Under the pieces are notes generated by a model that worked only from the letters and a program-made list of their open reading frames with translations, was not told where the DNA came from and did no database searches. Positions 54,118 through 57,775 of a stretch of 64,000 nucleotides of DNA are shown piece after piece (positions within the stretch are counted from its first letter, which is position 1; each line of letters opens with the position of its first letter). A program made the position numbers and the translations under genes. Where the stretch lies: assembly GCF_016026235.1 (NCBI RefSeq), contig NZ_CP065613.1; one strand, given 5' to 3'. Origin of the DNA: Escherichia coli. Lineage in GTDB: Bacteria > Pseudomonadota > Gammaproteobacteria > Enterobacterales > Enterobacteriaceae.

Positions 54118-54975
54118 CTAATTGGGTGATAACAGATCCTGTGTATGGGCGTTTCCCTTTGTGCGTGCGTTGATGCTGGTAACGGTAAACGTCATGATGA
54201 ACACGACCGCGAATAAGACGACAATCGTCGGAGCTGGTGCGCTGTCGATAAAAAAGGACAGCCAGACACCAGTCATTGACACTATTACCGATATGCCAGT
54301 CGCCAGTAGGAGCGCAATATGAAAGCGTTGTGTCAGGAGTACTGCAATGGCGCCAGGCGCAATGAGCAGAGAAATAGAGAGAATGATACCTACTGCTTTC
54401 AGCGTCGCCACAATGGTCAGGGAAACCATGCACAGCAGCCCATAATGCAGCCATCTCGTATGCAAACCGCTTACCTGCGCCTGTTGATAATCAAAGCTGA
54501 ACAGCAAAAAATCCCGCCATTTTACGCTAATAACAAGTGTAACCAGCCCGGCAATAATCACCGTCTGGATTATATCGCCGATGGTTATCCCGAGCATGTC
54601 GCCGAAAAGAATATGGTCAAGATGTACGTCTGGTTTGATTGCAATATACAAGATCAGACCTGCGGCAAACATGCCAGAAAAAACAATCCCCATAACTGTA
54701 TCTTGCTTGATTCGGCTGTTGTCTTTCAGGTATCCCGTCGCCACCGCGCAGAATACTCCGGCGACGAATGCCCCTGTAGCCAGAGGTAACCCCAGAATCC
54801 AGGTAAGCACGATGCCAGGAAAAACCGCATGACTCATCGCGTCACCCATCAGTGCCCAACCTTTCAGGACCAGAAAGACCGACAGCAGCGCACAGGGTAT
54901 GGAAACTACCAGTGAAATCAGCAGTGCGTGACTCATAAAGGTGAACTGCAGTGGCTCCAGTAATAATGCCATCAT
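54118..54975 (-). CDS. sitD: Mn/Fe ABC transporter permease SitD
   Basis: Polytopic membrane protein of the ABC-3 family. Last gene of a four-gene operon. Confidence 0.8.
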   Translation of the reverse strand: MMALLLEPLQFTFMSHALLISLVVSIPCALLSVFLVLKGWALMGDAMSHAVFPGIVLTWILGLPLATGAFVAGVFCAVATGYLKDNSRIKQDTVMGIVFSGMFAAGLILYIAIKPDVHLDHILFGDMLGITIGDIIQTVIIAGLVTLVISVKWRDFLLFSFDYQQAQVSGLHTRWLHYGLLCMVSLTIVATLKAVGIILSISLLIAPGAIAVLLTQRFHIALLLATGISVIVSMTGVWLSFFIDSAPAPTIVVLFAVVFIMTFTVTSINARTKGNAHTQDLLSPN

Positions 54976-55829
54976 GAGCGATCCTCCAGCGCTTTATGCG
55001 CACGCCGACGATTTGCCAAAAGTCCATGGGTGGGCGCAAATACAAATGCTAAAAGAAACAGCAGTGTCTGCGCCACCACGATGATTCCACCTGTCGCGCC
55101 GTCCAGAAAGTAACTGACCCACGCGCCGAGGAAACTGGTTACACTGCCAATAGTTACAGCAATTATGAGCAGGCGGGGAAAACGATCGGTTAACAACCAT
55201 GCTGTTGCACCGGGAGTCACCACCAGACAGATCACCAGAAAGGCACCAACCGTTTGCAGCGCCGCAACGGTCGAAACCGACAGCAGGGTGAAGAAGAGGA
55301 TTTTTAATCTGCCCGGATGTAATCCAATAGCACGGGCGTGATTCTCGTCGAAAAAGGTCACCATAAGATCTTTCCATTTGAAAAAAAGCACGATGATCGA
55401 GAGAATGCCAATGATAGTGAGTTGCAGGATATCCGCCGGATCGATTGCCAGAATATTGCCCAGGACGATGGTCTGAATGTTCACGGATGTCGGGTTCAAT
55501 GACACCATAAACAGCCCCAGGCCAAAAAAGGACGAGAAGATCAGGCCGATGATGGCATCTTCTTTTAAGCGGGTGCGTTGGTTAAGAAACAGCATGCTGC
55601 CCGCTGCCAGTCCGCCGGAAAAGAAGGCTCCCAGAGAAAACGGAAGCCCCAGCATATATGCCCCCGCAACACCCGGGACAATAGAGTGCGACAGCGCATC
55701 GCCAATCAGCGACCAGCCTTTTAGCATCAGATAGCATGACAGGAAAGCGCAGAGACCGCCGACCATTGCCGAGACCCACATCGCATTGAGCATATATTCA
55801 TAGCTGAAGGGTTCCAGTAGCACGTTCAT
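54972..55829 (-). CDS. sitC: Mn/Fe ABC transporter permease SitC
   Basis: ABC-3 permease. ATGA overlaps. Confidence 0.8.
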
Positions 55830-56653
55830 CTTGCTTCCCTCTGCACCGCTGACGGTCGATGTGCCACAAAAGGGCGTTCATCGTCAGTAATAATGCTTTC
55901 TTCCGAGCCGTTAAGTGTGACATGGCGCAGTACGCCGCTAAAAGCCAGCTCCAGGTTCTCGGCTGTAAAAGTGGTGTCTGTCGGCCCGCTTGCCAGGACG
56001 GTGCCTTTGACCATGACCGTATAATCGCAAAATGTCGTGACTGAGCCGAGATTGTGCGTTGAGACAAGCATCGTTTTGCCTTCCGCGCGTAACTCCCTCA
56101 ACAGGCTGATGATTTTCGCTTCGGTTTTCACATCAACGCCGGTAAAAGGTTCATCCAGCAGGATCACATCACCCTGCTGTGCAATCGCTCTCGCCAGAAA
56201 GACGCGTTTCTTTTGTCCACCGGAAAGCTCGCCGATTTGACGATGGCGAAAATCCACCATATCGACACGTTCCAGCGCATCGGTGACAATCTGACGATCC
56301 CTCTTTTTGGCTATACGCAACATACCCATATGCCCATAGCGGCCCATCATCACCACATCTTCCACCAGTACAGGAAATGACCAGTCAACCTCTTCTGACT
56401 GAGGGACGTAGGCAACCAGGTTTTTCTGTAGCGCCTGTCGCGTGGGAATACCCAGAACAGATATCTTTCCGCTGGTCAGACGCACAAATCCCATAATCGC
56501 TTTAAACAACGTCGATTTTCCGGAACCGTTTACCCCAACCAGAGCGGCAATAGATCCACTTGGTACTGTGAAGGATGCATCGCGCAGTGCTGTGTGCCCG
56601 TTACGCCAGGTGACAGTAACATCATTAACGACAATGCCTGCAGATTGCATCAT
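55826..56653 (-). CDS. sitB: Mn/Fe ABC transporter ATP-binding protein SitB
   Basis: Walker [10 protein letters not shown], signature LSGGQKKR, Walker B ILLDEP. Confidence 0.85.
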
Positions 56654-57567
56654 TATTTCTCCCTTTTCCCGGCTTTAATTCCCTGTACCAGCGTACTGGT
56701 AGTAACCTTAAGAAGGTCGATATACGTAGGTACCGGGCCGTTTTCTGTGCTCAGGGAATCGACATAGAGCACACCGCCGTAGTGTGCGCCGGTTTCACGC
56801 GCAACCTGACGCGCTGGTTTATCGGAAATCGTACTCTCGCTAAAGACTGCCGGGATATGATTTTTCTTAACTATATCAACAACCTTACGTACCTGCTGCG
56901 GTGTTCCTTGTTGATCGGCATTAATCGGCCACAGATAAAGCTCTTTTAGCCCCAAATCGCGTGCGAGATAAGAAAAAGCCCCTTCACTGGTGACCATCCA
57001 TCGCTGATTCTCAGGGAGTTCCGTAATCTGCTTACGCAGGGGGGCAAGGGTTTGGGTAATCTTGGCTTTATAAGTATCGGCATTACGTTGGTAGGTTTGT
57101 GCATTTGCCGGATCGTATTTTATCAACGCATCACGAATATTATCGACGTAAATCAGAGCATTATCTGGCGACATCCATGCATGGGGATTAGGTTTGCCCT
57201 CATAGGGTCCTTCGGTGATCCCTACTGGCGTCACACCCGAAGAGACAATTACTTCTGGAACCCCATTGAGATGCTGGTAAAAGCGTTGGAACCACAATTC
57301 CAGATTCATACCATTGGCGAGAATCAGTTGTGCCCCCTGCGCACGTTTAATATCGCCAGGGGTAGGCTGATACTCATGAATTTCTGCACCAGGCTTGGTT
57401 ATGGATGAGACTTCTGCAGCATCTCCAGCCACGTTTTTGGCCATATCCGCGATGATGGTAAATGTTGTAATGACCTTGAATTTTTCAGTTGCACTTGCCT
57501 GAAATGCGATCGAGCAGGTGAGGGCGAGGCACCCCAAGAGCATGGTTACTTTTTTTATTGAGTGCAT
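56653..57567 (-). CDS. sitA: Periplasmic metal-binding protein SitA (TroA/ZnuA cluster-9 family)
   Basis: Signal peptide. Metal-binding His/Asp context. First gene of the operon. Confidence 0.85.
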
Positions 57568-57598
57568 AATTTAGTACCTATAGTGAGCAAAATTAGAA

Positions 57599-57621
57599 CA
57601 AACATAGCAACGGCTATGTTT
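57599..57621. promoter_or_regulatory. MntR box (AAACATAGCAACGGCTATGTTTT palindrome) upstream of sitA
   Basis: Near-perfect match to the MntR operator consensus AAACATAGCnnnGCTATGTTT. Confidence 0.6.
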
Positions 57622-57643
57622 TATAGCATAACCTATACAAAAT

Positions 57644-57661
57644 GAAAATAATTATCATTAA
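57644..57661. promoter_or_regulatory. Fur-box-like sequence (GAAAATAATTATCATTAAC)
   Basis: Resembles GATAATGATAATCATTATC. Confidence 0.45.
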
Positions 57662-57775
57662 CAGCTTTGAGGCCTAAAACAGGGATTAGGTTGTTTCCTG
57701 CTGGCGACATGATATTGAGGAAAAAAGTAGAGCAGCTATTAGGCTTTGAAATGACTTTATGAGGAAAATTGTTGA

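Follow-up and report, generated by a model that had tools for sequence, protein, structure and literature searches.

The locus analyzed here raises the question of whether a bacterial metal-transport operon is carried as cargo by a prophage or belongs to the chromosome beside it, and how its transcription may be controlled there. The window, by which we mean the whole stretch of 64,000 nucleotides analyzed from Escherichia coli contig NZ_CP065613.1 (assembly GCF_016026235.1), contains the manganese/iron transport operon sitABCD between the tail fiber genes of a lambda-like prophage and the host gene uspF. We hold with high confidence that sitABCD is the intact cargo of a prophage integrated at ttcA. 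An earlier reading made from the letters of the window alone, without database searches (the sequence-only reading), had described the operon as prophage cargo downstream of the tail fiber genes, and the analysis agrees with it in placing sit within the two attachment (att) sites of the prophage, in the slot between the tail fiber genes and the phage att arm.

The limits of the prophage were set by alignment to an E. coli genome with an empty site, where ttcA directly adjoins uspF. This genome aligned to positions 6974-9516 and 57929-60704 of the window, with a 43-bp overlap, and the whole interval 9517-57928, sit included, was missing from it. The features at the two ends are the following.

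9474 to 9516, plus strand: attL, in the 5' end of ttcA (8588-9523, minus strand), from the empty-site alignment
9575 to 10810, minus strand: intR-type tyrosine integrase gene (phrog_1), with 97.4% DNA identity to the ttcA-intR-xisR segment of enteroaggregative E. coli (EAEC) 042
10812 to 11027: xisR, assigned via alignment to EAEC 042
57776 to 57928, plus strand: phage att arm, common to K-12 Rac and phage Rac-SA53
57929 to 57971, plus strand: attR, consisting of a 26-bp identical core (57929-57954) and an imperfect extension, from the empty-site alignment
57929 to 57978: 'ttcC', the displaced original 5' end of ttcA, a remnant at attR
58154 to 58588, minus strand: uspF, the first host gene past attR, from NCBIfam PRK15005 and RefSeq annotations

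The 26-bp att core was present in exactly two copies in the window, at 9474 and 57929, and a third, internal copy between the tail genes and sit was not found there. Hence attL and attR delimit one unit of 48,455 bp, which is about the size of lambda and includes sit. A first blastn comparison of the left and right junctions had missed the core, probably owing to low-complexity filtering, and it was the empty-site alignment that recovered it. The first eight codons of ttcA have been rewritten by the integration, TtcA starting with MQENQQIT in this lysogen and with MSQNQEIS at the empty site, in agreement with the four-residue change at the TtcA N-terminus published for Rac (PMC4632033). With the att core in ttcA, intR and xisR next to attL, and the N-terminal change in TtcA all present, this is a Rac-type prophage. 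The att arm carries three direct GGGGCAAA repeats (at 57786, 57805, and 57816) and an inverted copy at 57916-57929, and copies cluster by both att cores (9548-9566, 57786-57823, and 57916-57929). Nine copies are present in the window against 3.2 expected, five of them adjoining att sites, and these repeats may represent arm-type binding sites of the integrase. The match of Rac-SA53 to the arm falls under a feature annotated as 'attB'.

The possibility named by the sequence-only reading as fatal to its claim was a prophage that ends before 54100, and the mapping places attR at 57929-57971 instead, with the Rac-shared arm lying on the right side of sit. Thus, it appears highly improbable that sit is a chromosomal island lying beside the prophage. 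Such an island could account for the orientation of sit, which is convergent to the phage late genes, and for its own regulation; 79 of 80 representatives of other species carry sit without adjacent lambda-like tail genes, and the sit operon of Salmonella lies in Salmonella pathogenicity island 1. An island of this kind is, however, difficult to reconcile with the absence of 9517-57928, sit included, from the empty-site genome, with there being only two att cores, with the position of the Rac-shared arm, and with the location of sit between the tail fiber genes and int in genomes derived from virions.

For the operon as cargo of the ttcA-integrated prophage, we determined the identity and integrity of its genes. 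Four overlapping open reading frames at 54118-57567 on the minus strand correspond to sitDCBA, as the sequence-only reading had proposed, and family models support the assignment. None of the four contains an internal stop.

54118 to 54975, minus strand: sitD, inner-membrane permease of 285 residues (Pfam ABC-3, 9.7e-76), identical to RefSeq SitD WP_000968134.1
54972 to 55829, minus strand: sitC, inner-membrane permease of 285 residues (Pfam ABC-3, 3.8e-83), identical to WP_001101728.1, with a 4-nt overlap with both sitD and sitB
55826 to 56653, minus strand: sitB, ATPase of 275 residues (NCBIfam PRK15056), with Walker A GVNGSGKS, signature LSGGQ, and Walker B VILLDE
56653 to 57567, minus strand: sitA, periplasmic metal-binding protein of 304 residues with an N-terminal signal sequence (Pfam ZnuA, 8.9e-86)

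SitB scored 593.7 bits against the equivalog model for Mn/Fe ATP-binding cassette (ABC) ATPases NF011630 (PRK15056), passing its cut-off of 393. SitA matched the structure of Yersinia pestis YfeA (5uxs) with 420 bits, and its His64, His129, Glu195, and Asp270 aligned with the identical YfeA residues 76, 141, 207, and 282, which we take, from the structural work on YfeA, to be its metal ligands. SitA, SitB, SitC, and SitD each equaled the RefSeq-annotated protein of strain CFSAN029787 (100% identity), and their identity to the counterparts on phage Perceval and on a ColV-like plasmid was 95-99.7%. The order of the genes is binding protein, ATPase, permease, and permease, and a single sit transcript is plausible because the genes overlap or abut, with 1- and 4-nt overlaps. 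Taken together, the operon is an intact sitABCD, encoding by family an Mn/Fe ABC importer of the SitABCD/YfeABCD type. Its transport of Mn2+ and/or Fe2+ is probable in view of the identity to RefSeq SitA-D and of published work in avian pathogenic E. coli, Shigella, and Salmonella (PMC3852070). An additional open reading frame at 54014-54454, which overlaps the operon, had no family match and was treated as spurious.

Phage DNA is present on both sides of sit. On the right lies the Rac-shared att arm, and on the left lie genes for terminase, head protease, tape measure, J, Lom, and tail fiber. The structural module is 94% identical to that of phage mEp460_ev081, and the features next to sitD are the following.

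51889 to 53343, plus strand: side tail fiber gene with a phage_tail_N domain and, at about 52473, an internal mosaic breakpoint
53294 to 53917, plus strand: gene for a DUF4376 tail-fiber-associated protein (Pfam DUF4376, 1.2e-16; phrog_1141 'tail fiber protein'), the last phage late gene before sit
53928 to 53956, unstranded: GC-rich 10-bp hairpin between the convergent DUF4376 gene and sitD, with z = -3.8 on the plus strand and -2.65 on the minus strand

The sequence-only reading had located sit between tfa and attR; the attR side is correct, and the neighbor of sitD is the gene for the DUF4376 protein, not a classical tfa. The hairpin is a candidate bidirectional terminator between the late genes and sit, which is oriented opposite to them. 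The breakpoint of homology with EAEC 042, at 53931, falls within this hairpin. The operon appears to be dispensable to the phages that share its surroundings, as mEp460 has the structural module without sit, its homology to the window stopping at about 51960-51980, and Rac has the att arm without sit. A search for repeats at the borders of the 3.7-kb cassette, a possible trace of its capture, gave only short chance matches.

The region 5' of sitA contains the following elements.

About 57600 to 57622, unstranded: MntR box B (proximal), core 57604-57617, perfect AAACATAGC-AACG-GCTATGTTT, located 33-55 nt 5' of the sitA ATG
57623 to 57636, unstranded: MntR box A (distal), ATAGC-ATAA-CCTAT, with 1 mismatch, 19 bp from box B and overlapping the candidate -10
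57644 to 57662, minus strand: Fur box, GTTAATGATAATTATTTTC, with 16/19 consensus matches, probably overlapping the candidate -35
57620 to 57648, minus strand: candidate sigma-70 promoter, with -35 TTTTCA (57648-57643), a 17-nt spacer, and -10 TATAAA (57625-57620), read from the sequence
57568 to 57782, minus strand: conserved sit leader and promoter segment, in which homology to icd-type phage cassettes stops at about 57758 and homology to ColV-like plasmids at about 57782

The proximal palindrome, AAACATAGCAACGGCTATGTTT at 57600-57621, agreed with AAACATAGC-N4-GCTATGTTT without mismatch and was the sole match in the window when up to 3 mismatches were allowed, against 0.04 expected by chance. 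It was equal at 22 of 23 positions to the mntH operator of K-12, the characterized MntR operator, the differing base being in the spacer. When the window was scanned for ATAGC-N4-GCTAT with at most 1 mismatch, the adjacent boxes A and B were the only two matches. The Fur box was likewise the sole match in the window, against 0.01 expected. The MntR box of the sequence-only reading is thus real and a sole match, although its coordinates (57599-57621) were one base off and the second palindrome at 57623-57636 had been overlooked, and its Fur-like box was borne out.

To assess conservation, we compared 24 sit promoters of Enterobacterales, which were those of E. coli phages, a plasmid, Salmonella arizonae, Pantoea, Erwinia, Buttiauxella, Enterobacter, and others. 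Tandem MntR boxes with the 19-bp spacing were kept in 23 of them, the spacing being invariant even where the flanks had diverged, and the Fur box and the MntR boxes were kept in constant order and spacing in the promoters of phages, plasmid, and other genera. The mntH promoter of K-12 has one MntR box only. MntR boxes were absent from the alphaproteobacterial sit promoters examined. The SitA proteins of these bacteria (Rhizobiales and other non-enteric loci) are 64-76% identical to that of E. coli, nearly as near as that of Salmonella, and their promoters bear motifs such as GCAAATGAGAACCATTTGC in place of MntR boxes, which suggests an old horizontal transfer with a later replacement of the regulator.

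These operators have counterparts with experimental support. In Salmonella, a sitA-lacZ fusion was repressed by Fur and by MntR (PMC8970401), repression of Shigella sit by MntR is cited in a review (PMC3852070), and a Fur box was found 5' of every phage-borne sit operon examined (PMC6969025). By analogy with the homologous Salmonella and Shigella promoters (PMC8970401, PMC3852070), the sit promoter of the window is likely to be repressed by both Fur and MntR. Where the sequence-only reading had seen the locus as directly proven to be phage-borne and dually metal-regulated, the first part holds through the att mapping, and for the second the letters provide motifs. These motifs could instead be chance matches in AT-rich DNA that have no regulatory role, with the operon being constitutive or controlled by the phage, and the G+C content of the promoter region (36% in 57500-57999) is in line with this. 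Each motif, however, is unique in 64 kb at the low chance expectations given above, the MntR box nearly equals the mntH site, both boxes hold their order and spacing in several genera with diverged flanks, and in experiments Fur and MntR act on homologous promoters (PMC8970401, PMC3852070), so that we give a chance origin hardly any credence.

On these grounds, the following mechanism may be proposed for sitABCD as prophage cargo under metal control. SitA as the periplasmic binding protein, SitB as the ATPase, and SitC and SitD as the permeases would form a complete Mn2+/Fe2+ ABC importer, encoded by a self-contained 3.7-kb cassette (a 'moron') in a non-essential slot of the Rac-type lambdoid prophage in the 5' end of ttcA. 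Transcription of the cassette probably starts at a sigma-70 promoter of its own and does not depend on the phage repressor, which would allow the lysogen to express sit. The Fur box would lie over the -35 and the two tandem MntR palindromes over the -10 and the region of the transcription start; Fe2+-Fur and Mn2+-MntR could then each block RNA polymerase, and only a shortage of both iron and manganese, as is met within a host, would switch sit on. In extraintestinal E. coli, Shigella, and Salmonella, Sit systems help to supply Mn and Fe and add to peroxide resistance and virulence (PMC3852070).

The arrangement is already known (PMC2808357, PMC6969025, PMC9928086) and common in E. coli, and the window represents one more example of it. 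In the 2010 genome paper of EAEC 042, sitABCD is listed among the cargo of prophage 042p3, 'at the tail end' (PMC2808357). Among the lambda-type phages of infant E. coli studied by Mathieu et al., 70% bore sitABCD, with a Fur box 5' of the operon in every case (PMC6969025). Among 5426 complete E. coli genomes, 2335 (approximately 43%) held at least 80% of a 4.3-kb query around sit. The sitA-uspF junction of this locus was present in 494 complete E. coli genomes (9%), and its exact tail-fiber/sitD junction was present in only 6. The 3.7-kb cassette (about 54098-57782) also occurs in lambdoid prophages integrated at icd and on ColV-like plasmids, and it was found in 27 deposited phage genomes, among them Perceval, where it lies between the tail fiber genes and attP/int/xis. 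Infectious virions and expression of sit in the lysogen have been reported for Perceval (PMC9928086). Carriage by temperate phages would explain the spread and commonness of sit, with its 43% of complete E. coli genomes and its phage, plasmid, and remnant contexts. As genome papers and phage isolation studies have already established this spread by phage, the window adds a further example and no new principle.

A close counterpart at the same integration site is prophage 042p3 (ROD21) of EAEC 042, which has the order dbpA-ttcA-intR-xisR ... tail fiber genes-sitDCBA-uspF-ompN-nifJ and is 97.4% identical to the window at the left end and 97.9% identical from 53931 through sit into the host flank. 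It differs in having other tail fiber genes beside sit, homology beginning only at 53931; this comparison covered the ends of the prophage. The sit phages integrating at icd (Perceval of strain LF82, ev207, ev017, 1H12, and the Lambda_ev series; PMC9928086, PMC6969025) share a cassette that is 98% identical over 54098-57758, with SitA-D 97.5-99.7% identical and the same Fur and MntR boxes, in the same slot after J, lom, and the tail fiber gene and before attP/int. Unlike the prophage of the window, they use another integrase and att site (icd, not ttcA), carry two additional small genes in the interval from sitA to attP, and have been proven to form virions. K-12 Rac has in common with the window the att site in ttcA, the att arm (98.5% identical from 57776 onward), and the four-residue change at the TtcA N-terminus (PMC4632033), whereas its cargo slot holds pinR, ydfK, and ynaM, and the head genes are gone, as are most of those for the tail.

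Outside prophages, sitABCD of ColV/IncF plasmids has the same four genes with 95-99% protein identity and likewise a Fur box and tandem MntR boxes. It lies, however, between insertion sequence IS1 and a Tn3 remnant, beside aerobactin genes, and its promoter is about 87% identical, with the perfect and imperfect MntR boxes swapped, so that box A is the perfect one there. Salmonella sitABCD and Yersinia yfeABCD share the operon architecture in a chromosomal or pathogenicity-island context, with no prophage. The SitA of S. enterica subsp. arizonae shares 76% identity with that of the window, and the arizonae promoter also has a Fur box and tandem MntR boxes. Yersinia is without MntR, and yfe is regulated by Fur alone (PMC3852070).

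Several observations weigh against an intact and mobile cargo prophage with a defined promoter. Five structural genes shift frame relative to mEp460_ev081, namely those for the large terminase subunit (terL, about 33480), the portal (about 36630), the major head/protease protein (about 38465), the tape measure (about 44572), and J (about 50255 and about 50300), and hence this copy may be unable to make particles or to be mobile. In terL, the major head gene, and J, where the alignments are clear, the shifts are single-base deletions in homopolymer runs; the tape measure gene has a 1-nt deletion after a GGG run, and the site in the portal gene is ambiguous. Host genes and sit were free of such frameshifts. 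They could be real decay or, equally, unpolished long-read errors in repeated prophage DNA. Moreover, CFSAN029787 and an O121 strain match 52473-64000 at 99.3% identity, and their prophage bodies are quite different: the ttcA prophage of CFSAN029787 has the same intR/xisR with a contractile-tail body containing baseplate and sheath genes, and the O121 strain has a remnant there, broken up by IS1 and IS66. The phage collection contained no virion-derived genome joining a Rac-type att arm to sit. As for the promoter, a scan with consensus hexamers rejected the candidate because its -10 ends in A, and the two hexamers are our own reading of the letters and thus candidates only.

It is conceivable, although we would put it at somewhat less than an even chance, that the sit end (from about 52473 to attR) is a long-lived chromosomal remnant, inherited with the chromosome, while recombination with incoming phages has replaced the remainder of the prophage or this remainder has decayed. 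In that case sit would be phage-derived but in effect a fixed locus that has ceased to travel with a functional phage. In addition to the frameshifts in terL, portal, major head, tape measure, and J, the 99.3% identity of the right end to CFSAN029787, with its contractile-tail body, and equally to the O121 strain, with its remnant, is consistent with this, and so is the difference between the tail-fiber/sitD junction, in 6 genomes, and the sitA-uspF junction, in 494. On the other hand, intR and the att cores are intact, and an xisR homologue is present; the frameshifts, where the alignment is clear, are 1-nt homopolymer deletions, which is also the pattern of unpolished long-read errors in repeated prophage DNA; and related sit phages are demonstrably infectious (PMC9928086, PMC6969025). 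A fixed sit end would, moreover, refine rather than contradict the assignment of sit as prophage cargo, as the operon would still lie within one lambda-sized attL-attR unit.

With sitABCD as prophage cargo, the comparison yields two modest leads, both perhaps not described before. First, because the right end is 99.3% identical across different bodies, the cargo end and the phage body have had separate histories, and the end comprising sit and the att arm may be a semi-independent module that remains in place at ttcA as long-tailed (mEp460-like) and contractile-tailed bodies are exchanged for one another. Second, the two palindromes 19 bp apart suggest a tandem MntR operator, at which two dimers may bind jointly across the -10 and the start. 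That both leads hold is tentative, and we consider it rather unlikely.

Some minor observations were also made. The deposited record ON032529, the only one in the phage collection to combine the Rac-type att arm with sit, was considered as a packaged ttcA-type sit phage and rejected, since it includes the host genes uspF, ompN, and nifJ. Named 'Salmonella phage SPF_0923' (ON032529.1), it runs past sit into uspF, ompN, and part of nifJ, resembles E. coli DNA, and is a prophage extract with wrong limits. The lone exception among the 80 representatives of other species was [Erwinia] mediterraneensis, in which a J-like gene, a membrane moron, a tail fiber gene, and tfa are followed by a convergent sitDCBA with a SitA 79% identical to that of the window, so that the layout of the window recurs in another genus. 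A comparison of its sit flanks with related Pantoea and Erwinia loci found the operon alone in common and was uninformative as to a prophage beside a chromosomal sit. Finally, a scan of the sit region with Rfam detected no known RNA family there, its sole match being the small RNA MicC near ompN, at 60087-60207 between ompN and nifJ/ydbK (121 bits, with an Rfam gathering score of 90), as expected for this neighborhood.

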